A DNA stretch of 64,000 nt from Alphaproteobacteria bacterium (GTDB taxonomy: Bacteria > Pseudomonadota > Alphaproteobacteria > CACIAM-22H2): the NCBI GenBank assembly GCA_016793045.1, contig JAEUKZ010000028.1, forward strand, positions 484 to 64,483. The letters are read 5' to 3'. Each line of letters starts with the position of its first letter. Position 1 is the first letter of the stretch. The notes below the pieces were generated by a model. That model ran no database searches. It was not told the origin of the DNA and worked only from the letters and a program-made list of their open reading frames with translations. The translations under genes and the position numbers were made by a program. This document shows positions 29,407-50,471 of this stretch, piece after piece.

Positions 29407-30615
29407 TCACGGCGCGGACGGTTCGATGCGGTGGATGTCGTGCGTTACGACGCCCTGCTCCGCGCTCGGACGCTGAAGCCACTCGGGGCGTGCCAGCGTA
29501 CGCGCGATGTCGGCACCGCCCGCCGCCCAGTGGTCGCGCATCGTTGCAAGCCCGAACTCGTAGTCCTTTGCTTCGCCGAGCGCCACCTTCGCCCGATAGA
29601 TCAGGTGGATGACGTTGTAGACCTTGCTGCAGGCGAGGTCGGCCAGTTCGATGACCTCGGGATCCGCGCGCGCCTCCGCCGGAAGCTGCTCGCAAAGCTT
29701 CAGGATCGCGCGCCGCAGCTTCTGCGCGTAAAGCGCCGCGTCGGTCACCATGCGGGTCCGGCTCGAGTACTGGATGTCCTTCTGCCGCTCCATCGCATCG
29801 AAGATGTGCTGAGGCTGCGGGCCGCTCGCGCTCCACAGATCGACCTGAAACGCCAGCGTATCGCGACGCGGACCGGCCTCGAGCACGTGCATCAGCGGGG
29901 TGTTTGAAACGAGCCCCCCATCCCAATAGCAGTCATCGCCGATCTGGACCGGGGGAAAGCCCGGCGGCAGCGCGCCGGACGCCATGATGTGCTCCGGCCC
30001 GATTCGGATCCGGGCGGAATCGAAGTAGGTGAAGTTGCCGGTGGTCACCGACACGGCCCCGACGCTGACGCGCAGGTCCGCGCTGTTCAGCAGGTCGAAA
30101 TCCACGAGCCGCTCGAGGGTCGCGCGCAGCGGCGACGTGTCGTAGTAGCTCGTCGAGCCGGCGCTGCCCGGCGGCTGCGCCCATGGCGGCGGGACACGCG
30201 GCAGGAAGAACCCGGACTGTCCCTGGACGATCGTACGAACGGCCGACAAGGCATTGGCATACGTGCGAAAATCGTCGGTCAACGGCAGCAGCCGGGTGAG
30301 CGACTGCAGATCGATGATCGGCGGGATGAAGCTCGGCTCGCACACCGTTTCCCAGAACTCCCGCAATCGGCCGATGCGCCTCTCCGGCGGATTGCCCGCG
30401 ATCAGCGCGACGTTGATCGCGCCGATCGAGATCCCGGCATACCAGTTCGGCCGAATCCCCGCGGCGTGGAGGCCTTCATAGACGCCCGCCTGATATGAGC
30501 CGAGCGCGCCGCCGCCCTGGAGCACCAGCGCCACGGTCTCATAGTCGGGGAGAACCAGCGCGTCGGTCCGCTTCGTGGCGCCCGCCACGATGTCGGTCCC
30601 GGCGACAATCTTCAT
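29407..30615 (-). CDS. Patatin-like phospholipase family protein
   Basis: Oxyanion GGGALG and nucleophile elbow GISIG, catalytic DGG; about 400 aa with C-terminal extension. Confidence 0.8.
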   Translation of the reverse strand: MKIVAGTDIVAGATKRTDALVLPDYETVALVLQGGGALGSYQAGVYEGLHAAGIRPNWYAGISIGAINVALIAGNPPERRIGRLREFWETVCEPSFIPPIIDLQSLTRLLPLTDDFRTYANALSAVRTIVQGQSGFFLPRVPPPWAQPPGSAGSTSYYDTSPLRATLERLVDFDLLNSADLRVSVGAVSVTTGNFTYFDSARIRIGPEHIMASGALPPGFPPVQIGDDCYWDGGLVSNTPLMHVLEAGPRRDTLAFQVDLWSASGPQPQHIFDAMERQKDIQYSSRTRMVTDAALYAQKLRRAILKLCEQLPAEARADPEVIELADLACSKVYNVIHLIYRAKVALGEAKDYEFGLATMRDHWAAGGADIARTLARPEWLQRPSAEQGVVTHDIHRIEPSAP

Positions 30616-30763
30616 GATGCGGCCTCCTTGCTGCGCGGCCCACGGCTCGTCGACCACTTTGCGCGACGGTCAGCCGCACTGGCAATGCCATCGCCGGAAC
30701 CCCGACCCTTGCAATCCCGCCCGCGAAATCGTATGGGCAAGCCCGTTTGGCCCGCGAGGGGAA

Positions 30764-31267
30764 ATGCCGTCCATCGCGAATCTCGTCGCTGCGTTCACCG
30801 TCGGATGCGGCGTATTCTTCGGCGCGCAGGATCTGCGCGCCCAGTCGGTCGAGACGTGCTACCTCGCGCGGGCGGAAGTCGAAGCCGCCCTCGGCGCGCA
30901 AGTCCGCGATGAGCCGCCGCTCGAACGCGCCCAACCGAACGGATCGGCCTTCTGCACGTTCGCCATTCGACGTGTCTTGCGGGACTCGCGCTATCGCATC
31001 CTGTTCGTGCGCATCGACGTCCACGCCAACGAACGACAGGCGCGCGCGCGCGGCGTGCGCTGGATGTCCGGCACCGGCGAAATCCCGCGCGTGGCGATTG
31101 CGAACCTCGGCGACGAGGCCTGGTATGGCGGCATGACCGCCTTCCGCAAAGGCAGCACGACCGTGGTCGTCAATGCGACCGGCGATCTCGTCGCCAACGT
31201 CTCCGGCGCGCGCGACCGCGAGATCGAGGAACGCCTCGCCCGCCTGATCGGCGCCCGCCTGCCCTAG
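30764..31267 (+). CDS. Hypothetical exported protein (167 aa, 3 Cys)
   Basis: Internal ATG with GAGGGGAA RBS; N-terminal hydrophobic signal-like segment; divergent from patatin gene. Confidence 0.4.
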   Translation: MPSIANLVAAFTVGCGVFFGAQDLRAQSVETCYLARAEVEAALGAQVRDEPPLERAQPNGSAFCTFAIRRVLRDSRYRILFVRIDVHANERQARARGVRWMSGTGEIPRVAIANLGDEAWYGGMTAFRKGSTTVVVNATGDLVANVSGARDREIEERLARLIGARLP

Positions 31268-31302: not shown

Positions 31303-32085
31303 ATGAGCCGCGCCGATCTTGACCAGCGCTACCTTGCCGCCGCCGCGATCGCCCGCGAAGCGGGCCTGCTCGCGCGCCGCTACTACGAGGACCCCAAGCT
31401 CCGCGCCATCGACTACAAGGGACCGCAGGATCACATCACTGCCGCGGACGGCGCGGTGGAAAAGCTCATCAAGCAGCGCCTCGGCGAAGCGTTTCCGTCC
31501 GACGACACGTTTGGCGAGGAAAGCGGCGGTCATTTCGGCGAGCGCGTCTGGGTCATAGACCCGATCGACGGCACCGCCAATTTCGGCCGCGACGTCGCTC
31601 ATTGGTGCGTCTCGATCGCCTATGTCGAGGCGGGCAAGATCGAGATCGGCGCGATCTACGCCCCGCTCACCGACGAACTGTTCATGGCCCGCCGCGGCGG
31701 CGGCGCCACCGTCAATGGCCGTCCCATGCGGGCGAGCCCGCAGACCGACATCCGGCGCTCGATCGTCGAGTGCGGCTGGTCGGCGCGCCGTCCGATGGCC
31801 GACTATCTGCGCGTGATCGACCGTGTCGTCGGCGCTGGCGGCGTCTTCCGCCGTGCGGGTTCGGGTGCGCTCGGGATTGCCTATGTCGCGGACGGTCGCG
31901 CCGAGGGCTACTGCGAGCTTCACATCAACTCGTGGGATGCCCTCGCCGGGATCGTCATGGTCACCGAGGCCGGCGGCTGGGTGAACGACTTTCTCGCCGG
32001 CGACGGCATGAGCAAGGGCAACGCGGTACTGTGCACCTGCCCGGGTCTCAAGGACGCGCTCGTGGACCTGACCGGCATCCGCTGA
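31303..32085 (+). CDS. Inositol-monophosphatase-family (SuhB/CysQ-fold) phosphatase
   Basis: IMPase motifs WVIDPIDGT and WDxAAG. Confidence 0.8.
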   Translation: MSRADLDQRYLAAAAIAREAGLLARRYYEDPKLRAIDYKGPQDHITAADGAVEKLIKQRLGEAFPSDDTFGEESGGHFGERVWVIDPIDGTANFGRDVAHWCVSIAYVEAGKIEIGAIYAPLTDELFMARRGGGATVNGRPMRASPQTDIRRSIVECGWSARRPMADYLRVIDRVVGAGGVFRRAGSGALGIAYVADGRAEGYCELHINSWDALAGIVMVTEAGGWVNDFLAGDGMSKGNAVLCTCPGLKDALVDLTGIR

Positions 32086-32214
32086 ACGCGGCGCGAGCGC
32101 CCCGCTCGCGATCTCGCGCTTGCACGCGTTGTAACATTAGTGCCACATTCCGCAACGTAAGCTGGCACGATGCAAAGTTGCGAAGCCAGCGACCCTTAAC
32201 GGGAGGAATCGAAC

Positions 32215-33267
32215 ATGCGTAGTCGTCGTGGCTTGCTTGCCACCTTGCTGTGCGGTCTCGCGACGGCCGGTTCGCTGGGTGCCGGGTCGGCGCATGCCCA
32301 GCAGCGCGGCTCGGGCGAAGTCGTCGTCTACTGCACCGTCCAGGAGGAATGGTGCCGTCCGATGATGGCAGCCTTCGAGCGCGAAACCGGCATCCGCGTC
32401 GCGATGACGCGCAAGAGCTCCGGCGAGTTCTATGCGCAGATCCGCGCCGAGGCCTCCAACCCGCGCGGCGACGTCTGGTGGGGCGGCACTGGCGACCCGC
32501 ACGTCCAGGCTGCGCAGGAGAACCTGACGCTCGAGTACCGCTCGCCGCTCCTGGCCGAACTGCACCCCTGGGCAGTGCGTCAGGCCGAGCAGACGAATTA
32601 CCGCACGGTCGGCATCTATTCGGGCGCTCTGGGCTACAGCTACAACGTCACGCAGCTTCAGCGCCGCAACCTCCCGGTGCCGCGTTGCTGGTCGGACCTC
32701 CTCAATCCCGCCTTCCGGGACGAGATCCAGGTCGCCGACCCGAATTCGTCGGGTACTGCCTACACGATGCTCGCGACCCTGGTGCAGATCATGGGCGAGG
32801 ATCCCGCCTTCACCTACATGCGCAACCTGCATCGCAATATCAATCAGTACACGCGCTCCGGGGCGGCGCCGGCGCGTTCAGCGGCGACCGGAGAAAGTCT
32901 GATCGGCATCACCTTCCTGCACGATGCGGTCACGCAGAAGGTCGGCGGCGCACCTGTCGAGATCGTGGCCCCCTGCGAGGGCACCGGCTACGAGATCGGT
33001 TCGATGTCCCTGATCCGAGGCGGCCCGAATCAGGAGAATGCACGGCGCTTCTACGACTGGGCCCTGACCGCGCAGGCGCAGGCGATCGGCGCGCAGGCGC
33101 GCGCCTACCAGCTGCCGTCGAACCGCAACGCGCCGATCCCGCCGGAAGCCCCGCGCTTCGAGAACATCCGTCTGATCGACTACAACTTCGCACGCTGGGG
33201 CGAGTCGTCCGTGCGCAATGCCCTGCTCGAGCGCTGGGGCCGCGAGGTTCGCCAGGCGCCTCGCTGA
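32215..33267 (+). CDS. ABC transporter periplasmic substrate-binding protein, FbpA/AfuA (iron(III)/sugar-phosphate) family, paralog 1
   Basis: Signal peptide; SBP family-1 fold features; about 65% identical to paralog at 35498. Confidence 0.8.
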   Translation: MRSRRGLLATLLCGLATAGSLGAGSAHAQQRGSGEVVVYCTVQEEWCRPMMAAFERETGIRVAMTRKSSGEFYAQIRAEASNPRGDVWWGGTGDPHVQAAQENLTLEYRSPLLAELHPWAVRQAEQTNYRTVGIYSGALGYSYNVTQLQRRNLPVPRCWSDLLNPAFRDEIQVADPNSSGTAYTMLATLVQIMGEDPAFTYMRNLHRNINQYTRSGAAPARSAATGESLIGITFLHDAVTQKVGGAPVEIVAPCEGTGYEIGSMSLIRGGPNQENARRFYDWALTAQAQAIGAQARAYQLPSNRNAPIPPEAPRFENIRLIDYNFARWGESSVRNALLERWGREVRQAPR

Positions 33268-35485
33268 ACGCAATCGCACCGGAGGAGCGCGGGCCATCAA
33301 GCGCAACGTCGCGATCTGCCTCGCCGCAGGGTGGCTCGGCTATGCCGTGCTGCCGTGGTACGGGGTCGGGCGCGACGGAATCCTCGCGCTCGCATGGCTC
33401 GCGACCTACCCCGATGCGGCGAGCGCGCCGGCGCTCGTCCAGGCCCTCGCCCACGGGCGCGCATGGCTCCTGCCGATCGGGCTCGCCCTTGCGTTGCCCC
33501 TCGCGACCTTGACCCTGCCGCGCGAGCATCCGGCCTTCGGCCGGCTGCTCGTCGCCGGCGGCGCACTCGGTCTGATCTTTGCCGCCATCGCTGGCTTCGG
33601 CATCATCAATAGCGGTCCTCGCTGGGGCTGGGTCGCCGCGATGTTCGGCGACGCGCGTCAGCCCGGCTTTGGCGTTGGCGCCGTGATCACGGTCGGGGCG
33701 TTGGTGATGCTGTTTGCGAACGGCATCGCGGCGCGCGGCAATTTCCGCGGCGATGCGTTCATCGCCGGCTCGCTCACGGTGATCGTCGCGCTCATCGCGA
33801 TGTTCGTCGCTTTTCCGGTCGCCGGCGTGCTGCTCAGCGCGGTCCAGGACGCGGACGGCAACTTCACGATCCAGCGCTTCGTCGAACGCATTCTGGCCGA
33901 CAACGTGTGGGGCCTGGGCTGCATCGCCGGCGGGACGAGCTGCGGCGTCGCCTGGAACACGATTTTCCTCGGTATCCTCGCGGCCGTCTTCTCGACCGCG
34001 CTCGGCCTCGCGTTTGCGCTGATCGCGACCCGGACGACGTTCCGCTGGAAGAAGGGCCTGCGCGTCCTCACCATTCTGCCGATCATCACCCCGCCTTTCG
34101 TGATCAGCCTTGCGCTGATCATCCTGTTCGGCCGGACCGGCATCGTCACCGGCTGGCTCGGCGTGCTGTTCGACATCCCGCGTTCGCGCTGGCTATATGG
34201 CCTTCCCGGCGTACTGATCGCGCAGGTCCTGTCGTTCACCCCGGTCGCGTTCATGGTCCTCATCGGCGTCGTCGAGGGGATCAGCCCGTCGCTCGAAGAA
34301 GCGTCGCAGACGCTCGGCGCCAAGGCGGCCAAGACCTTCCGGACCGTGACGTGGCCGCTCATGCGCCCCGGCATTGCCAGTGCCCTGCTGCTCGGCTTCG
34401 TCGAGAGCCTTGCCGATTTCGGCAATCCGCTCGTCCTCGGCGGCAACTACGAGGTTCTGTCGACGCAGATCTACTTCGCGATCGTGGGCGCCGCGTACGA
34501 TCCCGGACGCGCCGCGATGCTCGCGGTTGTGTTGCTGTTCTTTACGCTCGGCGCCTTCTGGGTCCAGAACCGGTGGCTCGGCGAAACGAGCTACGTGACC
34601 GTGACCGGCAAGGGCGATGCCGGCCTCACGGCGGCACTGCCGCGCGGGGTGCGCTGGCTATGCTATGCGACGGCACTGCCTTGGGCGGTATTCACGCTCA
34701 CCATCTATGGGATCATCCTGGTTGGCGGCTTCGTGCACGACATGGGCCGCGGCGACATGACCTTCACCTGGCGCCACTATCTGACCGCCTTCCAGGTCGA
34801 GCAGACCGGGCACGGCCTGTTCTTCAGCGGCTCCGCCTGGCAGTCGTTCTTCACGACCATCCAGGTCTCCGCGATCGCGGCGCCACTCACCGCCGCCATC
34901 GGTCTGCTGACCGCCTGGCTCCTGGCGCGCCAGCGCTTCGCCGGCCGTCGCGCCTTCGAATTCGCAACGATGATGAGCTTCGCGATTCCCGGCACCGTGA
35001 TCGGCGTCGCCTACATCGTCGCCTTCAATGTCCCGCCGATCGAGATTACCGGTACCGGGATGATCCTGGTGATCTGCTTCGTGTTCCGCAACATGCCGGT
35101 CGGCACGCGCGCCGGCCTCGCAGCGCTCGCCCAGATCGACAAGAGCCTCGATGAGGCATCGCTGACGCTCGGCGGCCGCTCGGCGACCACTTTGTTCCGC
35201 GTCGTGCTGCCGCTGCTGCGCCCGGCCATCGTAGCGACGCTGGTCTTCAGCTTTGTCCATGCGATGACGGCGGTAAGCGCGATCATCTTCCTCGTGAGTG
35301 CGCGCTACAACATGGCGACCGCCTACATCGGCAGTCGCGTTGAAGCCGGCGAGTACGCCCTGGCGATCGCCTATTCTTCGGTTCTCATCGTCGTCATGCT
35401 GCTGTCGATCCTGCTGATCCAGTTCGCGGTCGGCCAGCGCAAGCTCGGACGCCGCGCGCCTGCTGTCAGCCTCGGCACGGCCTAA
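33218..35485 (+). CDS. Fused two-domain ABC transporter permease (FbpB/AfuB type)
   Basis: Two tandem BPD-transporter domains with EAA-like loops; no canonical start found after the SBP stop, so the ATG at 33218 (50-nt overlap) was kept. Confidence 0.75.
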   Translation: MPCSSAGAARFARRLAERNRTGGARAIKRNVAICLAAGWLGYAVLPWYGVGRDGILALAWLATYPDAASAPALVQALAHGRAWLLPIGLALALPLATLTLPREHPAFGRLLVAGGALGLIFAAIAGFGIINSGPRWGWVAAMFGDARQPGFGVGAVITVGALVMLFANGIAARGNFRGDAFIAGSLTVIVALIAMFVAFPVAGVLLSAVQDADGNFTIQRFVERILADNVWGLGCIAGGTSCGVAWNTIFLGILAAVFSTALGLAFALIATRTTFRWKKGLRVLTILPIITPPFVISLALIILFGRTGIVTGWLGVLFDIPRSRWLYGLPGVLIAQVLSFTPVAFMVLIGVVEGISPSLEEASQTLGAKAAKTFRTVTWPLMRPGIASALLLGFVESLADFGNPLVLGGNYEVLSTQIYFAIVGAAYDPGRAAMLAVVLLFFTLGAFWVQNRWLGETSYVTVTGKGDAGLTAALPRGVRWLCYATALPWAVFTLTIYGIILVGGFVHDMGRGDMTFTWRHYLTAFQVEQTGHGLFFSGSAWQSFFTTIQVSAIAAPLTAAIGLLTAWLLARQRFAGRRAFEFATMMSFAIPGTVIGVAYIVAFNVPPIEITGTGMILVICFVFRNMPVGTRAGLAALAQIDKSLDEASLTLGGRSATTLFRVVLPLLRPAIVATLVFSFVHAMTAVSAIIFLVSARYNMATAYIGSRVEAGEYALAIAYSSVLIVVMLLSILLIQFAVGQRKLGRRAPAVSLGTA

Positions 35486-35497
35486 GGGAGGGTATCT

Positions 35498-36520
35498 ATG
35501 CGGACCATTGCCATCCTCGCCATGCTTGCGGCCTTCCTGATCGCGCCCGGTCTGGCGCGTGCCCAGGGCGAAGTCGTCGTCTACTGCAGCGTGCTGGTCG
35601 ACTGGTGCAACCTGATGTCGCAGGAGTTCACCCGCGCCACCGGCATCCGCGTCGTGTTGACCCAGAAGGGGTCGGGCGAGACCTTCGCCCAGATCCGCGC
35701 GGAGGCGAACAATCCCCGCGGCGACGTCTGGTGGGGCGGCACCGGCGACCCGCATCTGCAGGCGGCAGAAGCCAACCTGACCGAGGAGTACCGCTCGCCC
35801 GCCCTGCCGCGCCTTCACGACTGGGCGCAGCGGCAGGCCCAGCAGTCGGGGTTCCGGACCGTCGGGATCTATGCGGGCGCGCTCGGCTTCACCTACAACA
35901 CCCAAGCTTTGGCGCGCGGGCGGATGCCCGAGCCGCGCTGCTGGCGCGACCTGCTGCAGCCGGCCTTCCGCGGCGAAGTGCAAATGTCCAATCCGCCGTC
36001 GTCGGGCACGGCCTATACTGCGCTTGCCACGCTCGTCCAGCTGTGGGGCGAGGAAGAGGCGTTCAACTACCTGCGCCAGCTTCACCGCCAGATCAACCAG
36101 TACACGCGCTCGGGGCCCGCGCCGTCGCGCAATGCCGCGCGCGGCGAGACCACGGTGGGCATCATGTTCCTGCACGATGCCGTCGCGGAAGCGATCGAGG
36201 GAGCACCGCTGCGGGTCGTAGCGCCGTGCGAGGGCACGGGGTACGAGATCGGCTCGATGTCGATCATCCGCGGCGGCCCCAATCGCGAGAATGCGCGGCG
36301 CTGGTACGAATTCGCGCTGACCCCGGCGGCCCAGGCGCTTGCGGTACGGGCGAAGTCCTACCAGATTCCCTCGCATCGCGATGCTCCGGTGCCGGAGCAG
36401 GCGCCACGCCTCGCGGACATCCGCCTGATCGACTACGACTTCGCGCGCTACGGCACGACCGCCGAGCGCAATCGCCTGATCCAGCGCTGGGAGCGCGAGG
36501 TCGGCAGCCAGCCTCGCTGA
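35498..36520 (+). CDS. ABC transporter periplasmic substrate-binding protein, FbpA/AfuA family, paralog 2
   Basis: Signal peptide; co-linear with paralog 1 including conserved N-terminal Cys pair and C-terminal ERW(G/E)REV motif. Confidence 0.8.
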   Translation: MRTIAILAMLAAFLIAPGLARAQGEVVVYCSVLVDWCNLMSQEFTRATGIRVVLTQKGSGETFAQIRAEANNPRGDVWWGGTGDPHLQAAEANLTEEYRSPALPRLHDWAQRQAQQSGFRTVGIYAGALGFTYNTQALARGRMPEPRCWRDLLQPAFRGEVQMSNPPSSGTAYTALATLVQLWGEEEAFNYLRQLHRQINQYTRSGPAPSRNAARGETTVGIMFLHDAVAEAIEGAPLRVVAPCEGTGYEIGSMSIIRGGPNRENARRWYEFALTPAAQALAVRAKSYQIPSHRDAPVPEQAPRLADIRLIDYDFARYGTTAERNRLIQRWEREVGSQPR

Positions 36521-36529
36521 ACAGAGCCA

Positions 36530-37603
36530 TTGCCCATGCCGAAGTCCGGTCCTTCATCCGTCGAATTTTCGGCCGTCACCAAGCGGTACGGAACGGTAAC
36601 AGCTGTCGACGCGGTGTCCTTCACGATCGAGCCGGGCACCTTGGTGACGCTGCTGGGGCCGTCGGGCTGCGGCAAGACGACCACACTGCGCCTGATCGCC
36701 GGGCTGGAGATCGCCAGCGAAGGGACGATCAGCATCGGCGGCCGCGATGTCACGCGCCTTTCCGCCGCGGATCGCAGCGTGAGCATGGTGTTTCAGTCCT
36801 ACGCGCTGTTTCCGCACATGTCGGTGCTCGACAACGTCGCCTATGGTCCGACCGTCTCGGGGCGGCGCAAAGCCGATGCGCGCGCGATGGCGCACGAGAA
36901 GCTCGACCTGCTCGGCCTCAAGGGCTTCGAAGGCCGGATGCCGTCGGAACTCTCGGGCGGACAGCAGCAGCGTGTGGCCGTCGCCCGTGCGCTGGTGCTC
37001 GAACCGGAGGTGCTGCTCTTCGACGAGCCGCTGTCCAATCTCGATGCCAAGCTGCGCCGCCGCGTGCGCGAGGACATCCGCGAACTGCAGCAGCGGCTGA
37101 ATCTCACCGTCGGCTACGTCACGCACGACCAGCAGGAGGCGCTTGCCGTCTCCGACCGCATCATCGTGATGTCGAATGCGCGCATCGCGCAATCAGGGCC
37201 GCCGCGCGAGCTGTACGAAGCGCCGGCCAATCCGTTCGTCGCCGACTTCATCGGCGACGCCAATCTGCTCGATGCCGAACTCCTGTCGGTGGAAGGGGCG
37301 CGCGCCCAGGTCCGCTTCGGCCCGGTCGTGCTTGACCTGCCGCACCGCGGTGCGGGCACCGGCGGGATCAAGCTTTCGATCCGGCCGGAGGCATTCCTGC
37401 TTTCCGCCACCCGTCCGAACCGGCCCTGCATTGCGGGCACCATCGCCAAGGCCGCCTATCTCGGCGCACACATGGAGTACAGCGTCACCACGGAGGGGGG
37501 CGAACTGTTCGTCGTCGATCGCGACGTGATGCGGCCCATCGCGGTCGGCTCAACGGTCTGGATCGACCTTGCCGACCATGGCGTGACGGTCGTCCCGGTC
37601 TGA
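36530..37603 (+). CDS. ABC transporter ATP-binding protein (FbpC/PotA-like, with C-terminal TOBE-like domain)
   Basis: Walker A GPSGCGKTT, LSGGQQQR, Walker B. Confidence 0.85.
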   Translation: MPMPKSGPSSVEFSAVTKRYGTVTAVDAVSFTIEPGTLVTLLGPSGCGKTTTLRLIAGLEIASEGTISIGGRDVTRLSAADRSVSMVFQSYALFPHMSVLDNVAYGPTVSGRRKADARAMAHEKLDLLGLKGFEGRMPSELSGGQQQRVAVARALVLEPEVLLFDEPLSNLDAKLRRRVREDIRELQQRLNLTVGYVTHDQQEALAVSDRIIVMSNARIAQSGPPRELYEAPANPFVADFIGDANLLDAELLSVEGARAQVRFGPVVLDLPHRGAGTGGIKLSIRPEAFLLSATRPNRPCIAGTIAKAAYLGAHMEYSVTTEGGELFVVDRDVMRPIAVGSTVWIDLADHGVTVVPV

Positions 37604-37667
37604 GCCAGGTCCGCCGGGCAGGCGCTTCTCCCCCGCACCCCGGCGGTCCAAGATCGCGGCCACGATC

Positions 37668-39254
37668 ATGGACGCACTCTCATCGGCCCGACTCTCGCTT
37701 CGCTCCGCCCTCCCGCTGGCGGTGCTCTACGTCCTTGTGATCTGGGCGAGCTATGCGGCCGGCTTCGATGAAGATGAGATCATTCCGATCTGGCCGGCGG
37801 CCGGCATCCTGATCTATGCCGCGTTCCGCTTTGGCTGGCCCGGCCTGATTCTTTTCGGTGCCCTCGACTTCGCGGCCGCTCAACTTGCCTTGCCGAGCCA
37901 CGAGCCAGCGCCGCTGATCGATGCGCTGTTCGCGCTCGCCAACATCGCGGCCGTCGCCGCCACCATGGCCTTGCCTGGCGCACGAGCGGCGTTCTTTGCC
38001 ATGTTCGAACGTTCGCGGGCGATGCTGTGGGTCCTCGCCGCGGCGGCCTCGCTATCGAGCGGCCTGTCCGCACTTCTCGCGCTCGCCATTCTGCGCACGC
38101 TGTCCGCCTTCGCCCTCGCCCCCGAGCCGTTGCTGTGGGAGGTCGGGCTGCGCTGGTTTCTGTCCGACTACGTCGGGACGGTGATCGCCGCACCGCTGCT
38201 GCTGGCATGGTCGCGCCACCGTGGTGAAGGCGGTGCGACGATGTCGGTTCACCTGGCCTGTGCGGCTGTCGCGGTCGCGGTCATGCTCGCCCTCACGGTG
38301 CTGATCCCGCTGCCACCCGGCGCCTCGCGATTCTCCCTTCTGCTGGGACTTTCCCCATTGCTGCTCTGGGCGGCGTTGACGACGAGCCCGCTCGGTCTCA
38401 CCGCGCTGCTGGCCGTCACCGGCACCGGCGCCGCGGCCCTGACGATCGAAGTGATCGGGCCTGCATCGGGGATGCGGCCGGAAACCGCGATCCTGGTCGT
38501 CCAGGCCTATCTGCTCGCAGCCGCCTTGTCGGCACTCGTGGTCCTGGTCAGCCGCCGCGAACAGACGCGGCTCGCCTACGAACGCGGCAATCTCGCGCGC
38601 TTCTTCTCCCCCCGCGTCGTCGAACTGGTCGCCGCCGGGTTCGAGGAGGCCGGGCGTGATCGCGTGCAGGACGTCGCGGTGCTGTTCATCGACATCCGGG
38701 GCTTCACGGGCTTCGCGGAAACCGAAGCGCCCGCCCGCGTGATGAGCGTCCTGCGCGGCTTCGCAGCGCGCGTCGAGACCCGCGTCTTCGACCACGACGG
38801 CACGCTCGACAAGTACCTCGGCGACGGGGTCATGGCGACGTTCGGCGTTCCGAAGGCGAGCGTCGCCGACGCCCGCAACGCGCTCGCCTGCGCGCGCGGC
38901 CTGCTCGAAGACGTCGCCGAATGGAACCGCGAACGAACCACGGGCGGCGAACCGCCGATCGAGGTCGGGATCGGCATCCACCTCGGCCCCGTGGTGCTTG
39001 GAACGATCGGCAGCGAGCGGACGAAGTCGCTCTCGGTGCTCGGCGACACCGTCAACACAGCATCGCGGCTGCAGGCACTGTCGCGCGAACTCGGTACGCA
39101 GCTGGTGACGAGCGGCGACGTCGTCAACGCCGTTCGCGCGGAGGCCGAGCCAGGCGCGCAGACACTTCTCGCGGGGCTGCGATCCGCCGGCGCGCGCCCG
39201 GTCCGCGGGCGCAGCGCGGCGACGGAGATCTGGATTCTCGACGAAACGCGCTGA
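37668..39254 (+). CDS. MASE1-like membrane sensor fused to class III adenylate/guanylate cyclase domain
   Basis: About 300 aa polytopic N-terminal region, C-terminal CHD motifs (FIDIRGFT, KYLGDG, GDTVNTASR). Confidence 0.75.
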   Translation: MDALSSARLSLRSALPLAVLYVLVIWASYAAGFDEDEIIPIWPAAGILIYAAFRFGWPGLILFGALDFAAAQLALPSHEPAPLIDALFALANIAAVAATMALPGARAAFFAMFERSRAMLWVLAAAASLSSGLSALLALAILRTLSAFALAPEPLLWEVGLRWFLSDYVGTVIAAPLLLAWSRHRGEGGATMSVHLACAAVAVAVMLALTVLIPLPPGASRFSLLLGLSPLLLWAALTTSPLGLTALLAVTGTGAAALTIEVIGPASGMRPETAILVVQAYLLAAALSALVVLVSRREQTRLAYERGNLARFFSPRVVELVAAGFEEAGRDRVQDVAVLFIDIRGFTGFAETEAPARVMSVLRGFAARVETRVFDHDGTLDKYLGDGVMATFGVPKASVADARNALACARGLLEDVAEWNRERTTGGEPPIEVGIGIHLGPVVLGTIGSERTKSLSVLGDTVNTASRLQALSRELGTQLVTSGDVVNAVRAEAEPGAQTLLAGLRSAGARPVRGRSAATEIWILDETR

Positions 39255-40142
39255 TCACAGCCCCGCCCGTGCCGCCTCCCGGCGAAGGTAGTCGTTCCCC
39301 ATCCGCGCATAGGTGAGCGGATGCGCCTTGGCCGGGTCCTGCTCGGCCTCGACGACCAGCCATCCCGCGTAGCGCCGCTTGGCGAGCACGGCGAAGAGGC
39401 TCGGATAGTCGACGATCCCGTCGCCTGGCACCGTGAAGACGCCGGCCAGGACCGCCTTGAGGAACGGCCAGTCCGCAGCCTTTGCCTGCTCCAGGACTCC
39501 GCGGCGGATGTCCTTGCAGTGGACGTGCACGATCCGGCCCGCATGCTGCTTCGCGCACGCGAGCGGGTCACCGCCGGCGTAGGTGAGATGACCCGTGTCG
39601 AGGAGCAGCCCCACCTCCGGTCCAGTCGACGCCATCAGCCGATCGATCTCGCCCGCTGTCTCGACCACCGTCCCCATGTGATGATGGTAGGCCAGCGCGA
39701 CGCCCTGCCCGGCGAGATAGCGCGCGACCTCGCCGATGCGGCTCGTGAACTGCGTCCACTCGGCGTCGCTCATCCGCGGCCGCTGCGACAGCGGCGTGCC
39801 CTTCTCGCCATGGACGGCGCCTGACACTTCGGCGAAGACCATCGCTGTGCAGCCCATCGCCTTGTGCAGCGCGAGATGGTCCTGCATCGCCGCGATCTCC
39901 GCGGCCGCATCGCGCTCACGCAGCCGTGCGCTGTACCAGCCCGACACGACCGCGAGCCCGTGCCGCGCCATGATCGGGCGCAGCAGGTCAGCCTTGCGCG
40001 GGAACTTGTTGCCAAGTTCCATGCCGTCATAGCCCGCCTGCTTCGCCTCCGACAGGCAGGTTTCGAGCGGCGTATCGCCGCCCAGTTCCGGCATGTCGTC
40101 GTTGGTCCAGGTCAGCGGGTTGATCCCGATCCGCACGGCCAT
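39255..40142 (-). CDS. iolE: Sugar-phosphate isomerase/epimerase (xylose-isomerase-like TIM barrel), IolE-like inosose dehydratase
   Basis: N-terminus RIGINPLTWTNDD and overall length typical of IolE. Confidence 0.7.
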   Translation of the reverse strand: MAVRIGINPLTWTNDDMPELGGDTPLETCLSEAKQAGYDGMELGNKFPRKADLLRPIMARHGLAVVSGWYSARLRERDAAAEIAAMQDHLALHKAMGCTAMVFAEVSGAVHGEKGTPLSQRPRMSDAEWTQFTSRIGEVARYLAGQGVALAYHHHMGTVVETAGEIDRLMASTGPEVGLLLDTGHLTYAGGDPLACAKQHAGRIVHVHCKDIRRGVLEQAKAADWPFLKAVLAGVFTVPGDGIVDYPSLFAVLAKRRYAGWLVVEAEQDPAKAHPLTYARMGNDYLRREAARAGL

Positions 40143-40256
40143 GACGGCTCTCTCCCTAGGTGTTTGGCCTTGACGCGCCGCGCACGTTACGGACTTATGA
40201 CGCCGCCAACAAGGGCGTTCGGCCCTGCAGGAAATGCCCAGGAATCAGAGGACGCG

Positions 40257-41249
40257 ATGATCACCTTCGCCATGTTCGGGGCTGGCCGGATCGGCAAGAT
40301 CCACGCCGCCAACATCGCCGGCGCCGAAGGCGCGCGGCTCGCCTATATCGTCGATGTCGACCGCGCGGCGATGGACCATATCGCCAAGCTGACCGGTGCC
40401 AGGCCCGCGACCCGCGAGGAAGTCCTCGCCGACCGATCGGTCGACGCCGTCGTCATCGCCTCGCCGACCGACACCCACGCGGAGCTCTGCGTCGCCGCCG
40501 CCAAGGCCGGCAAGGCGATCTTCTGCGAAAAGCCGATCGACCTGTCGCTGAAGCGCGTCGATGCCTGCCTCGCCGCCGTGCGCCGCGCCGGCGTTCCGAT
40601 GATGGTCGGCTTCAACCGCCGCTTCGATCCCAACTTCGCCGCGCTGAAGTCACGCATGGACAAGGGCGAGATCGGCACGCTCGAGCAGGTCATCATCACC
40701 AGCCGCGACCCGGGCCTGCCGCCGATCACGTACCTGAAGGCATCCGGCGGCCAGTTCCGCGACATGACGATCCACGACTTCGATACGGCGCGCTGGCTGC
40801 TTGGGGAAGACCCGGCGGAAGTCTATGCGACGGGAAGCTGCCTCGTCGATCCGGGCCTCGCCAAGATCGGCGACATCGATTCCTGCATGGTCGTGATGCG
40901 GACCGCCTCAGGCAAGCTCGCGCACATCAACAACAGCCGCCGCGCGACGTATGGCTACGACCAGCGGGTCGAGGCCTTCGGCTCGAAGGGCCGGATGATC
41001 GCAGGCAACGTCGCCCCGACGACCGTCGAACTGGCGAACGGCGATACGGTGAGTGCCGACAAGCCGCTGCACTTCTTCCTCGAACGCTATGCCCAGGCCT
41101 ATCGGATCGAACTTGCGGCGTTCCTGAACGCGCTCGCGAAAAAGCGGCCGATGCCGGTCGGCGCCGCCGATGGTCGCGCCGCGCTGGTGCTCGCGGAAGC
41201 GGCCCTCGCGTCGCTCAAGTCGGGCCGCGCTGTGAAGCCGAAGTTCTGA
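40257..41249 (+). CDS. iolG: myo-inositol 2-dehydrogenase (Gfo/Idh/MocA family; IdhA/IolG-like)
   Basis: GAGRIGKxHA Rossmann motif, FCEKP, NRRFDP, ITSRDP and RDMTIHDFD motifs closely matching rhizobial IdhA from memory. Confidence 0.85.
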   Translation: MITFAMFGAGRIGKIHAANIAGAEGARLAYIVDVDRAAMDHIAKLTGARPATREEVLADRSVDAVVIASPTDTHAELCVAAAKAGKAIFCEKPIDLSLKRVDACLAAVRRAGVPMMVGFNRRFDPNFAALKSRMDKGEIGTLEQVIITSRDPGLPPITYLKASGGQFRDMTIHDFDTARWLLGEDPAEVYATGSCLVDPGLAKIGDIDSCMVVMRTASGKLAHINNSRRATYGYDQRVEAFGSKGRMIAGNVAPTTVELANGDTVSADKPLHFFLERYAQAYRIELAAFLNALAKKRPMPVGAADGRAALVLAEAALASLKSGRAVKPKF

Positions 41250-41260
41250 GGGAGCATTCC

Positions 41261-42037
41261 ATGTCCCAACGTCTCGATGGCCGAATCATCCTGATCACCG
41301 GCGGCACCCAGGGCGTCGGCGAAGCGACCGCGCGCATCTGCGCCCAGGCCGGCGCCGCCGGCCTCTGCATCACCGGGCGCGACGCCCGGCGCGGCGAGGC
41401 GGTCGCGGCCGAGCTGTCGAAGACCACGCCGACGATCTTCGTGCAGGCCCTGCTCGAAGACGCGGATCAGGTCCGCGGCATTGCCGCGGCGACGGAGAAG
41501 CGGTTCGGATACTTCGACGGGCTGGTCAATGCCGCCGGCCTCACCGATCGCGGAACGATCGAGGACACGCCGGTCGAGCTGTGGGACCGGCTGATGGACG
41601 TCAACGTCCGCGCGCCGTTCATCCTGACGCAGGAGATGGCGCGCCGGCTGGAGGCCAAGAAAAAGCCTGGCGCGATCGTGAACATCATCACGCGGTCGAG
41701 CCACGGCGGGCAGCCCTTCCTCACCGCCTATTCGACGTCCAAGGGCGCGCTGGCGACGCTGACCAAGAACACCGCGCACGGCCTGCGCAAGCACCGAATC
41801 CGCGTCAACGGCATCAATGTCGGCTGGATGGATACCCCCGGCGAACATGCCATCCAGATGCGCGAGGGCAAGCCCGCCAACTGGCTCGAGATCGCGGAAC
41901 GCACGCAGCCCTTCGGCCGCCTCGTGAAGGCCCAGGACATGGCGGTGCTGTCGCTCTATCTCCTCAGCGACGCGTCGATGCCGATGACTGGCGCGCTGAT
42001 CGACTACGACCAGAACGTCATGGGCGCCTACGACTGA
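41261..42037 (+). CDS. SDR-family oxidoreductase
   Basis: ITGGTQGVG and YSTSKGA motifs. Confidence 0.75.
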   Translation: MSQRLDGRIILITGGTQGVGEATARICAQAGAAGLCITGRDARRGEAVAAELSKTTPTIFVQALLEDADQVRGIAAATEKRFGYFDGLVNAAGLTDRGTIEDTPVELWDRLMDVNVRAPFILTQEMARRLEAKKKPGAIVNIITRSSHGGQPFLTAYSTSKGALATLTKNTAHGLRKHRIRVNGINVGWMDTPGEHAIQMREGKPANWLEIAERTQPFGRLVKAQDMAVLSLYLLSDASMPMTGALIDYDQNVMGAYD

Positions 42038-42039
42038 CC

Positions 42040-42552
42040 GTGTCGGACACAGGCCCGAAGGCGCTGCGGACCGCGCGGCTCGTTCTGCGGCCGCTCGCGG
42101 CGCGCGATGTCGATGCCCTTCACCCGATCCTGACGTCGACGTCGGTCCGCCGCTTCCTGTTCGACGGCGAGACGGTCAGCCGCGACTTCCTCGCTGCAGC
42201 CATCGACGCATCGATCCGCAACTTTGCCGACCGCGGGTGGGGCCTCTTCGGCATCACGCTCGAAGACGATGTGCCGCAGGGCCTGTGCGGGTTTCACATG
42301 GTCGGCACGCCGGCCGAGCGCCAACTCGTCTACGCACTGGCGCCGGCGATCTGGGGCCAGGGGCTTGGGGGCGAAGCGGTCGGCGCGGTGGTCAAGCACG
42401 CGCTCGACGTCTGCGGCATGAAGTCGATCGTCGCCGCCGTCGATGCCCCAAACACCGCATCGATCGCCATCCTGCGACGACTCGGCTTCGAGCCGGAAGT
42501 CCGTCTCGTCGAGCGTGGCCGCGACGTCATACGCCACGTCCTGCGCGGCTGA
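42040..42552 (+). CDS. GNAT-family N-acetyltransferase (RimJ/RimL-like)
   Basis: GTG start 3 nt after SDR stop; GNAT core (QGLGGEAVGAV). Confidence 0.65.
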   Translation: MSDTGPKALRTARLVLRPLAARDVDALHPILTSTSVRRFLFDGETVSRDFLAAAIDASIRNFADRGWGLFGITLEDDVPQGLCGFHMVGTPAERQLVYALAPAIWGQGLGGEAVGAVVKHALDVCGMKSIVAAVDAPNTASIAILRRLGFEPEVRLVERGRDVIRHVLRG

Positions 42553-42562
42553 GCCCCGGTGC

Positions 42563-42745
42563 TCAGCGCTTGTCGAGTTTGTGCGCCTCGTGTGCGCGCT
42601 TGGCCCGGCTTGCCTCTGCCTCGCGCTTTTCGCGTTCGGCCTTCGGTTGGCCGAAGCGCGCGCGATTGTCGGCTGCCTTGGCGGCGTCCTCCTCGCGCGC
42701 CTTGCGCTTGCGGACCAGGCGCAGATTGACGGTTTCGGCCATCAC
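42563..42745 (-). CDS. DUF4169-like highly charged mini-protein (60 aa)
   Basis: Lys/Arg/Glu-rich; ATGA overlap with upstream CoA-transferase gene. Confidence 0.45.
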   Translation of the reverse strand: MMAETVNLRLVRKRKAREEDAAKAADNRARFGQPKAEREKREAEASRAKRAHEAHKLDKR

Positions 42746-43968
42746 CCCTCCCCGCCGCCCTTGCGCCGCTTGGCGGCCAAGATCCCCTCTTCGGTCAGCG
42801 CGGCGATCTCGCTCGCCAAATAGCCGGCCTCTTCGAGCACCGCCGCGCCGTCTCGGTTGAAGCGCGGCGGCGTGCGGCGGACCGAGCCCGGCGTCCGGCT
42901 GAGCTTGATCGGGATGCCGGTGCCGCGATAGTCGCCGCTTTCGACGACCATCCGCCGGTGAACCGCATGCGGATCGGCGAGCACTTCCGGAATGTCCATG
43001 ACCGCGCCGGCGGGAACGCCGATGCGGATCAGCCGCTCCGCGAGCGCGCCGCCATCGTGGCCGGCGAGCAGCCCCTCCAGTTCGCCGCGCAGCGCGTCGC
43101 GATTGACCACCCGGTCGCCGTTGGTGAGGAAGCGCTTGTCCTTGGAGAGCGCCGGCGCGCCGAGTTCGGCGCAGAGCCGCTCGAATTGCCGATCATTGCC
43201 GACCGCGAGAAAGACCGAGCGCCCGCGGGTCTTGTAGCTGTCATAGGGCGAAATGTTCGGATGCGCGTTGCCGATGCGCTGCGGCGGCTTGCCCGACATC
43301 AGGTAGTTCGCGGCCTGCGGATGGAGCAGCGAGATGGCGCAATCGTACAGGCTGCAGTCGACCGCCTGGCCCTTGCCGGTGCGCGCACGCTCGAACAGCG
43401 CCATCAGGATGCCGATCGCGGCGTTGAGGCCGGTGCCGAGATCCACGATCGGCGTGCCCATCCGCACCGGCCCCGATTCCGGCGTGCCGTTGATGCTCAT
43501 CAGGCCCGACACCGCCTGCACCGCGGCGTCGTAGCCCGGCAGGCCGCCACGCGGGCCGTCCGGCCCGAAGCCGGTGATGTGGCAATAGACCAGGCGCGGG
43601 AACTTCTTCGCCAGCGTGTCGGCGTAACCGATGCCCCATTTCTCCAGGGTGCCGGGCTTGAAGTTGTGGATGAGTACGTCTGCGCCTTCGAGCAGGCGCA
43701 TCAGCACCTCGCGCCCTGCCGGCTTGGCGAGGTCGAGGGCCACTCCCCGCTTGTTCCGGTTGACGCCGACGAAATACGACGCGGCGTCATCGCGGAACGG
43801 CGGGCCCCAGTCGCGCACCTCGTCGCCCTGCGGCGGCTCGATCTTGATCACGTCAGCGCCGTGGTCGCCCAGGATCTGCGTGCAGTACGGACCGCCCAGG
43901 ACGCGGGTCAGGTCGATCACCTTCACGCCGGCCAGCGCACCCTGCGCAGGCTGTGTCTCAGCCGCCAT
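42742..43968 (-). CDS. Family III CoA-transferase (CaiB/BaiF family)
   Basis: N-terminal GVKVIDLTRVLGGPYCTQILGDHGADVIKIE and conserved Asp region. Confidence 0.8.
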   Translation of the reverse strand: MAAETQPAQGALAGVKVIDLTRVLGGPYCTQILGDHGADVIKIEPPQGDEVRDWGPPFRDDAASYFVGVNRNKRGVALDLAKPAGREVLMRLLEGADVLIHNFKPGTLEKWGIGYADTLAKKFPRLVYCHITGFGPDGPRGGLPGYDAAVQAVSGLMSINGTPESGPVRMGTPIVDLGTGLNAAIGILMALFERARTGKGQAVDCSLYDCAISLLHPQAANYLMSGKPPQRIGNAHPNISPYDSYKTRGRSVFLAVGNDRQFERLCAELGAPALSKDKRFLTNGDRVVNRDALRGELEGLLAGHDGGALAERLIRIGVPAGAVMDIPEVLADPHAVHRRMVVESGDYRGTGIPIKLSRTPGSVRRTPPRFNRDGAAVLEEAGYLASEIAALTEEGILAAKRRKGGGEG

Positions 43969-43982
43969 TGCTCCTCCGAATG

Positions 43983-45526: not shown

Positions 45527-45566
45527 ACGCAGCCCAGCGAGTGCGGCAAAGCGCCCTGCGCGCGGG

Positions 45567-50449: not shown

Positions 50450-50471
50450 CCGCGCGCGGGGCCGCAACCGA

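Follow-up and report, generated by a model that had tools for sequence, protein, structure and literature searches.

The closest described relatives of the locus are AfuABC of Actinobacillus pleuropneumoniae and Citrobacter rodentium (PDB 4R72-4R75) and the system of VcA0625 in Vibrio cholerae (8X1A). Their hosts are gut or respiratory pathogens. In these systems, an operon encodes a binding protein together with a TOBE ATPase and a fused permease about 700 residues long, and the products are misannotated as iron transporters. In AfuA, mutation of S37, T150, H205, D206, or E229 weakens or abolishes binding of glucose-6-phosphate (G6P), and H205, D206, and E229 are essential for it (PMC4546632). 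AfuA has a paralog in P5PA, which belongs to the pyridoxal-5'-phosphate importer P5PAB of Actinobacillus (6WCE). P5PA keeps the phosphate site, its ligand has been changed by a few pocket substitutions, and both D206 and E229 are replaced by alanine. This ligand switch sets a precedent for new specificities in the AfuA family.

Paralogous binding proteins of different specificity can share one translocator, as do HisJ and ArgT with HisQMP, LivJ with LivK, and CysP with Sbp. The ferric importers FbpABC, HitABC, and SfuABC belong to the same broad binding-protein superfamily as AfuABC and have the same transporter architecture.

The locus lies in a 64-kb stretch of DNA (the window) and is established by sequence and fold as an AfuABC-type importer, with a single fused permease and a single ATPase, together with two binding proteins (SBP1 and SBP2) predicted to dock on the same translocator (Table 1). 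The two-domain permease and the TOBE-containing ATPase are encoded together with both binding proteins. The transporter genes are tightly spaced, with gaps of 12 nt between permease and SBP2 and of 9-15 nt between SBP2 and ATPase. All gene positions in a preliminary description of the locus proved correct, and BLASTP and Pfam bear out its outline of two about 65% identical binding proteins around a single fused permease, followed by one ATPase.

Table 1. Genes and spacer of the locus, in positions of the 64-kb window
Feature	Position	Strand	Evidence
IMPase-family phosphatase gene	31303..32085	+	Pfam Inositol_P, E 1e-55
IMPase-SBP1 intergenic spacer, 129 bp	32086..32214	+	direct sequence reading
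SBP1 gene, AfuA-type binding protein	32215..33267	+	PDB matches AfuA 4R72, VcA0625 8X1A
Fused AfuB-type permease ORF, 755 aa	33218..35485	+	two BPD_transp_1 domains
SBP2 gene, second AfuA-type binding protein	35498..36520	+	AfuA 4R72 match, E 5e-92
AfuC/FbpC-type ABC ATPase, C-terminal TOBE	36530..37603	+	Pfam ABC_tran + TOBE_2
MASE1 membrane sensor fused to class III nucleotide cyclase	37668..39254	+	Pfam MASE1 + Guanylate_cyc
iolE, myo-inosose-2 dehydratase	39255..40142	-	TIGR04379
iolG, inositol 2-dehydrogenase, divergent from iolE	40257..41249	+	TIGR04380; start ATG 40257 from sequence
SDR oxidoreductase, PRK06198 subfamily	41261..42037	+	NF004847, 350 bits vs cutoff 240
GNAT acetyltransferase	about 42040..42552	+	Pfam Acetyltransf_3

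SBP1 and SBP2 share 65% identity over 320 residues in a gapless alignment (BLASTP, E 2e-163). Both carry Sec-type signal peptides, and both genes show strong third-position GC. Searched against the PDB with phmmer, SBP1 matches AfuA (4R72, E 3e-84) and VcA0625 (8X1A, E 1e-84), and SBP2 also matches AfuA. The matches to P5PA (E ~1e-71 to 1e-74), PhnS (4R6Y, ~1e-10), and FbpA (1e-4 or weaker) are weaker. The two proteins are 42-46% identical to AfuA and 21% identical to FbpA. An AF2 model of SBP1 (pLDDT 90) superimposes on G6P-bound AfuA (4R73) with a TM score of 0.94 and an rmsd of 1.5 Å, and the best structural matches in Foldseek are G6P-bound AfuA and VcA0625. By these comparisons, both binding proteins, which have the AfuA fold (class II, cluster D), group with AfuA, VcA0625, and P5PA and not with FbpA, PhnS, or ThiB, the clades between which the preliminary description had wished to decide; their scores against the NCBIfam models PhnS2 and sfuA fall well under the cutoffs. 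SBP2 has a separate set of orthologs, with 70-92% identity.

The permease start is uncertain: from the ATG at 33218 the gene would share 50 nt with SBP1, and from a GTG further on it would encode about 725 residues. Permease homologues in related loci have 686-745 residues, compared with 755 for the ORF here. The best NCBIfam model for the permease is fused PhnU2 (256 bits, cutoff 593.25). The ATPase likely starts at ATG 36536, and its best models are ferric and PhnT2 ATPases, both under cutoff (354 bits against 457.7 for PhnT2).

The ligand pocket was compared with that of AfuA, using the residue list of PMC8427247 and PMC4546632 and AfuA numbering, and was surveyed in 215 homologs (128 of the SBP1 clade, or clade 1, and 87 of the SBP2 clade, or clade 2). 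Sixteen of the 19 AfuA pocket residues are identical in the binding proteins, including all phosphate and ring contacts. The phosphate-coordinating residues S37, G38, T60, S148, G149, T150, and G185 are shared by SBP1 and SBP2 and hardly vary among the 215 homologs. The ring-binding residues Y103, H205, D206, E229, and Q269 are likewise identical in both proteins, which, in contrast to P5PA, thus retain D206 and E229 as well as H205. The H205-D206-E229 motif persists in relatives with as little as about 30% identity and therefore does not define the ligand.

The remaining pocket lining of the G6P binders (S9, T11, G36, and I/V186) is not matched and reads T/Q/S/A in SBP1 and S/L/G/P in SBP2. 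Three of these positions separate the paralogs. Position 11, T in AfuA, is Q in 128 of 128 clade-1 proteins and L in 83 of 87 clade-2 proteins. Position 36, G in AfuA, is S in all 128 of clade 1 and G in 85 of the 87 of clade 2. Position 186, I in AfuA, is A throughout clade 1 (128/128) and P in most of clade 2 (83/87). Compared at the ligand contacts, as the preliminary description had proposed, the paralogs thus differ by variants that are each near-fixed within a clade. On sequence grounds, these differences fit two related ligands for SBP1 and SBP2, and such three-residue signatures may provide a simple, testable specificity code.

The two-receptor layout, in which one operon joins two paralogous SBP genes to a single set of permease and ATPase genes, resembles that of HisJ/ArgT-HisQMP, LivJ/LivK, and CysP/Sbp, and the genes predict that both receptors dock on the same permease. 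Unlike in those systems, the second SBP gene is located between permease and ATPase, and members of the SBP2 clade are also found as orphan genes or beside other SBP classes. The layout had been called unusual, and it is indeed rare among close relatives: a second SBP is found in one of the 80 nearest genome loci, where it belongs to a separate divergent system. The order IMPase-SBP-permease-SBP-ATPase nonetheless recurs on three other contigs (L084, L085, and L099), and SBP2 is placed between permease and ATPase in these three and in L086, L088, and L096. One locus, L159, contains three SBPs. A third SBP class, with W203, F205, and A206, is present in L086, L088, L096, and L159; this class has also lost the H205/D206 pair, which P5PA partly lacks.

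The gene upstream of SBP1 is part of a conserved association. Of 110 related loci whose flanks are long enough, 85 have an IMPase-family gene immediately before the SBP1-type gene (genomes, 62/77; metagenomes, 23/33), a frequency far above expectation for a family with few copies per genome. The pairing occurs in Acetobacteraceae, Hyphomicrobiales, Betaproteobacteria, and Rokubacteria. In the 63 genome loci whose upstream flank spans 6 kb or more, iolE is present in 53, and iolG, an SDR gene kept beside it, and iolD in 50 each. Elioraea and Roseomonas carry a single array of iolG-SDR-IMPase-SBP-permease-ATPase, divergent from iolD-iolE, and the Hyphomicrobiales loci additionally carry iolC. 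No other recognisable inositol transporter was found in the clusters whose gene content was fully read. The closest relatives of the transporter belong to Acetobacteraceae and Rhodospirillales-like genomes, with no sign of Sphingomonadales.

The iolE and iolG genes of the window are true equivalogs (TIGR04379, 418.9 bits, cutoff 290; TIGR04380, 434 bits, cutoff 355). The iolD gene, present in most related loci, is missing here: tblastn with IolD and IolC as queries gave zero matches in the window, and no family matching iolB, iolC, or iolA was found among the other window genes scanned. In L084, the closest relative by synteny, the surroundings are free of iol genes. For these two reasons, the catabolic link is weaker here than in Acetobacteraceae. 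Homologues of the MASE1 cyclase are absent from the genome and look-up loci tested (L001-L089), and those of the GNAT gene from the related loci tested; the two genes adjoin the transporter but lie outside the conserved unit. Of the inositol-related neighbourhood first described, the linkage with IMPase, iolG, SDR, and iolE, to which iolD can be added, is strongly conserved across several phyla; the genes for the cyclase and the acetyltransferase accompany the transporter in this window alone.

The IMPase paralog displays readable DPIDGT and WD..AG motifs and has no signal peptide. Its best NCBIfam match is inositol-1-monophosphatase, with 163 bits against a cutoff of 332, and it scores under all NCBIfam equivalog cutoffs. 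The enzyme appears to be a dedicated cytoplasmic paralog whose predicted role is to remove the phosphate from the imported ligand.

The conserved pairing of the importer with IMPase-like and inositol-breakdown genes suggests that these bacteria import intact inositol phosphate. On balance, we favor a pathway in which an inositol monophosphate-like ligand is taken up, dephosphorylated in the cytoplasm, and then passed to Iol catabolism, with SBP2 probably devoted to a second ligand. SBP1, of the widespread clade, would capture a cyclic polyol monophosphate, most likely myo-inositol monophosphate. The ligand would enter the cell with its phosphate still attached, and the upstream-encoded IMPase-family enzyme would strip the phosphate. 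Free inositol would proceed to IolG, IolE, and, where present, IolD, giving carbon and phosphate. SBP2, with its different pocket, probably supplies the shared permease with another phosphorylated sugar or cyclitol, related to the first ligand. Clade, pocket, and neighbourhood all support the initial reading of the locus, which had envisaged import of a phosphorylated cyclitol or sugar phosphate followed by dephosphorylation and inositol oxidation.

A wider proposal, to which we give a little less than an even chance, is that an undescribed branch of AfuA serves as the receptor of a dedicated route for intact inositol monophosphate in soil, freshwater, and hot-spring bacteria. Exchangeable binding proteins of the Q/S/A, L/G/P, and W/F/A classes would then let one translocator take different phosphorylated ligands or isomers. 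No published description of such a system was found. Inositol phosphates are a major organic phosphorus pool of soils and sediments, and extracellular phytases and phosphatases are commonly assumed to remove their phosphate groups. High-affinity import of intact inositol monophosphate, if true, would offer an additional route to carbon and phosphorus, and import without prior extracellular dephosphorylation would be a real route in organic phosphorus turnover. It would also extend the ligand range of the AfuA family past hexose phosphates and vitamin B6, and thousands of annotations as 'iron(III) transport' that distort metagenomic estimates of iron uptake would have to be revised. The hypothesis is open to direct testing, since cultivable strains carry the cluster, among them Elioraea tepidiphila DSM 17972 and members of Roseomonas and Falsiroseomonas.

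The locus could instead encode an ordinary AfuABC importer of hexose or heptose phosphates (G6P, F6P, and S7P), its IMPase and iol neighbours being unrelated to the substrate or merely co-regulated. The 16 shared pocket residues include S37, T150, H205, D206, and E229, and the top structural matches are the G6P-bound AfuA and VcA0625. IMPase and iol genes are also missing from some SBP1-clade loci and from most loci of the SBP2 clade, which is not itself tied to these genes; of the 77 SBP1-clade genome loci, 15 have no IMPase gene and stand among unrelated neighbours. Moreover, AfuA binds no G1P (PMC4546632), and an inositol phosphate likewise has its phosphate directly on the ring. However, imported G6P requires no phosphatase, yet the IMPase gene is upstream in most related loci across distant lineages, mostly within iolG/iolE/iolD clusters. 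The three pocket positions are unlike those of both G6P binders and near-fixed in each clade. The identity to AfuA is modest, and P5PA, at 54% identity to AfuA, already binds a different ligand. We regard a hexose-phosphate substrate as unlikely, though with a real chance of being correct. Besides the pocket differences, the importer departs from the AfuABC and VcA0625 systems in having two binding proteins per translocator, an IMPase-family phosphatase, and iol genes, and it is found in environmental Alpha- and Betaproteobacteria and Rokubacteria.

IMPase-family enzymes accept several polyol phosphates. The ligand may accordingly be another phosphorylated compound that such an enzyme can hydrolyse, including a sugar-alcohol phosphate, scyllo- or chiro-inositol phosphate, or a phosphodiester such as glycerophosphoinositol, and the main purpose may be phosphorus scavenging. 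The invariant phosphate-binding residues, the low equivalog scores of the IMPase paralog, and a gene for a Na/Pi-cotransporter-PhoU or phosphonate-binding protein flanking several loci are all compatible with such a ligand. The commonest neighbours are nevertheless bona fide iolG and iolE, above equivalog cutoffs, and iolD, pointing to an inositol product, and glycerophosphodiesterase was not seen in the clusters inspected. We consider this alternative rather improbable.

Import of free, unphosphorylated myo-inositol, with the IMPase serving endogenous inositol-phosphate turnover only, would fit the observation that the importer seems to be the sole transporter in iolG/iolE/iolD clusters of otherwise standard make-up. 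The established myo-inositol uptake systems IbpA-IatP-IatA and IolT/IolF also lie inside iol clusters and supply IolG. They transport free inositol by a ribose-type binding protein, as in known inositol ABC importers, or by an MFS carrier (PMC11065229), whereas the receptors here are AfuA-type and predicted to bind phosphate, and a phosphatase gene accompanies them. The invariance of all seven phosphate-coordinating positions in both clades would make little sense if the ligand carried no phosphate, so this reading is very unlikely.

A ferric-iron FbpABC importer or a 2-aminoethylphosphonate PhnS2/T2/U2 importer is hardly credible, despite source annotations of homologs as 'iron(III) transport system substrate-binding protein' and phnS2, PhnU2, PhnT2, and ferric ATPase as top NCBIfam names, as FbpA matches at an E value of about 1e-4, all phosphonate-system scores are far under curated cutoffs (202 and 179 bits for the binding proteins, against 392.75), and phosphonate catabolic genes were not recognised in the window. 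In the alignment to Neisseria FbpA, verified as 1R1N, the iron ligands His9, Glu57, Tyr195, and Tyr196 correspond to Gln/Leu, Gly, Thr/Met, and Phe. Unlike in FbpABC, HitABC, and SfuABC, none of the four ligands is thus kept, in line with the initial view that the locus is probably not a ferric-iron importer.

The IMPase-SBP1 spacer matches no Rfam family, and neither a consensus sigma-70 promoter nor a terminator was found in it. The spacer may nevertheless contain an internal promoter or operator. Recognisable in it are GTAAC-like repeats, a ribosome-binding site (GGGAGGA), and a GC-rich hairpin that lacks a T-run. CTTAAC/GTAAC-like words are present in the equivalent spacer of 13 of 67 relatives.

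By sequence and fold, the locus encodes an importer of the AfuABC type that combines two periplasmic receptors (SBP1 and SBP2) with one fused permease and one ATPase. The phosphate site and the polyol-ring site of the receptors are intact, and an iron site is absent. Genes were selected by third-position GC and family matches; spurious ORFs are common because the G+C content is about 68% across the window. SBP1 and SBP2 share 65% identity over 320 residues with no gaps, and the transporter genes are spaced by just 9-15 nt. Where the permease starts is uncertain, its ORF encoding 755 aa versus 686-745 aa in relatives, and the ATPase probably starts at the ATG at 36536. Apart from these two small start-site corrections, the gene set, the SBP identity, the signal peptides, and the tight spacing confirm the SBP-permease-SBP-ATPase importer amid inositol genes given in the preliminary description.

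Genes of the importer region in the window, followed by selected features of related loci (L numbers) on other genomes and metagenome contigs
Feature	Location	Strand	Remarks
230-aa ORF	30575-31267	+	directly 5' of IMPase gene; third-position GC 0.83, coding-like
IMPase-family gene	31303-32085	+	
SBP1	32215-33267	+	Sec-type signal peptide
Permease ORF	33218-35485	+	two BPD_transp_1 domains
SBP2	35498-36520	+	Sec-type signal peptide
ABC ATPase	36530-37603	+	TOBE_2 domain
MASE1 + class III cyclase gene	37668-39254	+	
iolE	39255-40142	-	TIGR04379, 419 bits vs cutoff 290
iolG	40257-41249	+	divergent from iolE; TIGR04380, 434 bits vs cutoff 355
SDR	41261-42037	+	PRK06198 subfamily
GNAT	about 42040-42552	+	
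Family III CoA-transferase, CoA-transferase subunit genes, aldehyde dehydrogenase	42742-47138	-	downstream of iol segment
CysQ, 3'(2'),5'-bisphosphate nucleotidase	50418-51263	+	second IMPase-family gene; TIGR01331, 248 bits vs cutoff 229
PRK06198-subfamily SDR, example	L001 8351-9139		
iolE-iolG intervals compared	L085 12357-15243; L001 4558-7287		
CoA-transferase genes	L084 11223-14048		
Three-SBP cluster	L159 8114-15504		
Third-class SBP genes	L086 8951-9970; L088 8939-9979; L096 598-1620; L159 13435-14415		
Na/Pi-cotransporter-PhoU gene	L003 2889-4550; L085 3887-5584; L087 3985-5658; L099 11304-12941; L104; L119		

The remaining window genes are housekeeping genes, including dnaB, alr, mlaEF, radA, purF, der, bamB, tsaC, and a dinB-like gene. 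The second IMPase-family gene was considered as a further relevant phosphatase and set aside; it encodes CysQ, is unrelated, and shares just 26% identity with the IMPase gene next to the importer. The 230-aa ORF matched no Pfam or NCBIfam family.

Searched against all PDB sequences, SBP1 and SBP2 match Actinobacillus AfuA (4R72-4R75) with E values of 3e-84 and 5e-92, and 8X1A with 1e-84 and 5e-91, respectively. The latter is named in its PDB entry as the periplasmic G6P-binding protein VcA0625; a literature search found no paper on it. Both proteins also match P5PA (6WCE), a pyridoxal-phosphate binder, at about 1e-71 to 1e-74, followed by PhnS (4R6Y) at about 1e-10 and ferric FbpA proteins at about 1e-4 or weaker. 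The best-named NCBIfam matches are phnS2, PhnU2, and PhnT2, which reach only about half of the curated cutoffs. The AlphaFold model of SBP1 (mean pLDDT 90, pTM 0.83) can be superimposed on G6P-bound AfuA and 8X1A with a TM score of 0.94 and an rmsd of 1.5 Å. Ferric binding proteins lie far down its structural match list, with E values of about 1e-20 and identities of 16-18%. The E values of both receptors and the fold of SBP1 place them with AfuA, 8X1A, and P5PA, not with PhnS or FbpA.

The AfuA pocket is lined by 19 residues (PMC4546632; PMC8427247), which were mapped onto SBP1, SBP2, and 215 homologs. All seven phosphate contacts (S37, G38, T60, S148, G149, T150, and G185) and all five ring contacts (Y103, H205, D206, E229, and Q269) are identical in SBP1 and SBP2. 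Three positions are unlike both G6P binders, AfuA and VcA0625, and the SBP1 and SBP2 clades each have their own, almost fixed variant. Position 11, T in the G6P binders, is Q in the SBP1 clade (128/128) and L in the SBP2 clade (83/87). Position 36, G in the G6P binders, is S (128/128) and G (85/87), and position 186, I in AfuA and V in VcA0625, is A (128/128) and P (83/87). The two paralogs, for which two related ligands had been envisaged, carry distinct residue sets at these positions, Q/S/A and L/G/P. Since the phosphate and ring contacts are kept and three positions are clade-specific, both receptors should bind a phosphorylated cyclic polyol, and their ligands should differ from each other and from those of AfuA.

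The pocket is close enough to that of AfuA that G6P or F6P may also be the ligand. The core Y...SGT...SG...F-HD...E...Q is found down to about 30% identity among 86 full-length family representatives (50% clustering), and marks the family, not G6P binding. Despite 54% identity to AfuA, P5PA binds another ligand (PMC8427247). A ferric-iron importer, already held improbable in the preliminary description, is ruled out as far as the alignment reaches: the iron ligands His9, Glu57, Tyr195, and Tyr196 of Neisseria FbpA (sequence identical to 1R1N) are replaced by Gln/Leu, Gly, Thr/Met, and Phe in SBP1/SBP2, so that none is retained.

Scanning a single genome for each species gave 80 SBP1-clade loci, which were annotated by tblastn with the window proteins. 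For 77 loci, the upstream sequence extends 1.2 kb or more; 62 of these have an IMPase-family gene directly upstream on the same strand. Where at least 6 kb was available (63 loci), iolE is present in 53, and iolG, the SDR gene, and iolD in 50 each. Metagenome loci of the Q/S/A type give the same picture, with the IMPase gene in 23/33 and iol genes in 14/20. In Elioraea tepidiphila and Roseomonas sp. AR75, a single array iolG-SDR-IMPase-SBP-permease-ATPase is divergent from iolD-iolE. Acetobacteraceae loci carry the full array, Hyphomicrobiales loci a rearranged array with iolC (PfkB plus DUF2090) added, and Betaproteobacteria loci mostly IMPase-SBP-permease-ATPase alone. In Rokubacteria and Methylomirabilota, SBP-permease-ATPase is followed by iolE-iolD. 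Where the IMPase gene is missing, the adjacent genes are unrelated and encode, for example, other ABC systems or a phosphonate-binding protein. The conserved core is the IMPase-importer pair, which the iol genes usually accompany. The clusters read gene by gene, those of E. tepidiphila, Roseomonas sp. AR75, and L085, an alphaproteobacterial MAG, contain no other gene recognisable as an inositol transporter.

Within the inositol-related neighbourhood described earlier, the IMPase, iolE, iolG, and SDR genes are thus conserved; the MASE1 cyclase and GNAT genes have no homolog in any related locus tested and look like local, lineage-specific insertions. The SDR of the uncharacterised PRK06198 subfamily stands with iolG in 50 of the 63 loci, and no iolC was found within 10 kb in Acetobacteraceae clusters; this SDR may be part of a variant lower inositol pathway. 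A Na/Pi-cotransporter-PhoU gene was rejected as a conserved partner, being present in only nine of loci L001-L089 and a few metagenome loci. At best a weak hint, it might handle phosphate split off the ligand after import, unless its presence beside the cluster is coincidental.

The conserved context suggests a route for an inositol phosphate. SBP1 would capture an inositol monophosphate-like ligand, which would be imported with its phosphate still attached. The IMPase paralog lacks a signal peptide and has recognisable DPIDGT and WD..AG motifs; in the cytoplasm, it would release phosphate and inositol. IolG and IolE would then degrade the inositol, together with IolD and IolC at loci that encode them. 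More tentatively, SBP2 would deliver a second phosphorylated sugar or cyclitol. A weak point of this reading is that AfuA rejects G1P (PMC4546632), in which the phosphate is attached directly to the ring, just as in inositol phosphates. Further weak points are the absence of IolD from the whole 64-kb window (tblastn) and of iol genes close to the importer on L084, a JGI metagenome contig that has flanking genes in common with the window and is its closest syntenic relative.

In the window, iolB, iolC, and iolA were not recognised either. Within 39255-40256, which comprises iolE and the spacer up to iolG, the gap between the two genes is just 114 bp, whereas the relatives compared (L085 and L001) have iolD between iolE and the divergent iolG. 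Without an iolD copy elsewhere in the genome, the inositol pathway at this locus would not proceed beyond the IolE step. The MASE1-cyclase gene starts 64 nt past the ATPase gene, roughly where relatives carry iolE-iolD. CoA-transferase genes are common to the window and L084, and these flanks are therefore ancestral context. The iol segment looks either inserted or only partly retained in the window lineage.

SBP2 is not a recent local duplicate: a separate set of orthologs shares 70-92% identity with it. The order IMPase-SBP(Q/S/A)-permease-SBP(L/G/P)-ATPase is found three more times, in L084, L085, and the contig L099; in L085, the transporter is followed by iolE-iolD and iolG-SDR, much as iol genes follow it in the window. 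The L/G/P class also follows a third SBP class in Ferrovibrio-like genomes (L086, L088, and L096) and occurs as an orphan gene in L087, L089, and L101. On the metagenome contig L159, three SBPs surround one permease in the order IMPase-SBP(Q/S/A)-SBP(L/S/I)-permease-SBP(L/S/A with W/F/A)-ATPase, adjoining iolG-SDR. The two-SBP layout, previously called unusual, is thus rare but recurrent, and not unique to the window. The SBP2 clade acts like an accessory receptor and has no link of its own to inositol genes. The third class has a pocket with T37, P60, W203, F205, and A206, has lost the His-Asp ring-binding pair, and is always accompanied by another SBP on the same transporter (L086, L088, L096, and L159). 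A sugar phosphate is unlikely to be the ligand of this class.

Among characterised systems, the nearest are AfuABC (G6P, F6P, and S7P), VcA0625 (G6P), and P5PAB (pyridoxal phosphate). The window locus shares every family-level feature of AfuABC that was tested and departs only in that its pockets are not fully identical to those of the G6P binders. Unlike the known systems, it is coupled in a conserved way to iol genes and an IMPase-family phosphatase, has pocket signatures almost fixed by clade, and has several receptors on one translocator. A full-text search of incomplete coverage found no paper in which uptake of inositol phosphates is ascribed to an ABC importer, of the AfuA type or any other. 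The AfuA study does not mention inositol, and inositol phosphates were not among the ligands tried (PMC4546632). Inositol phosphate import, as predicted from genome context, is specific, concerns many organisms, and is testable in cultivable strains.

Between 30000 and 43500, no regulatory RNA matched Rfam at E up to 0.1. A consensus scan gave no promoter, and terminator-like matches were intragenic only. A sigma-54 promoter match (TGGCAC...TTGC) in the spacer 32086-32214 was rejected on reading the sequence, its spacing being wrong. The cluster contains no evident regulator gene. A common-motif search of the IMPase-SBP spacers of 67 loci returned only weak CTTAAC/GTAAC-like words (13/67). GTAAC/GTTAC-like words occur in two intergenic regions of the window, 32086-32214 and 40143-40256 (GTTGTAACATTAG, CGCAACGTAAGC, and CACGTTACGGAC), and may constitute a shared operator.
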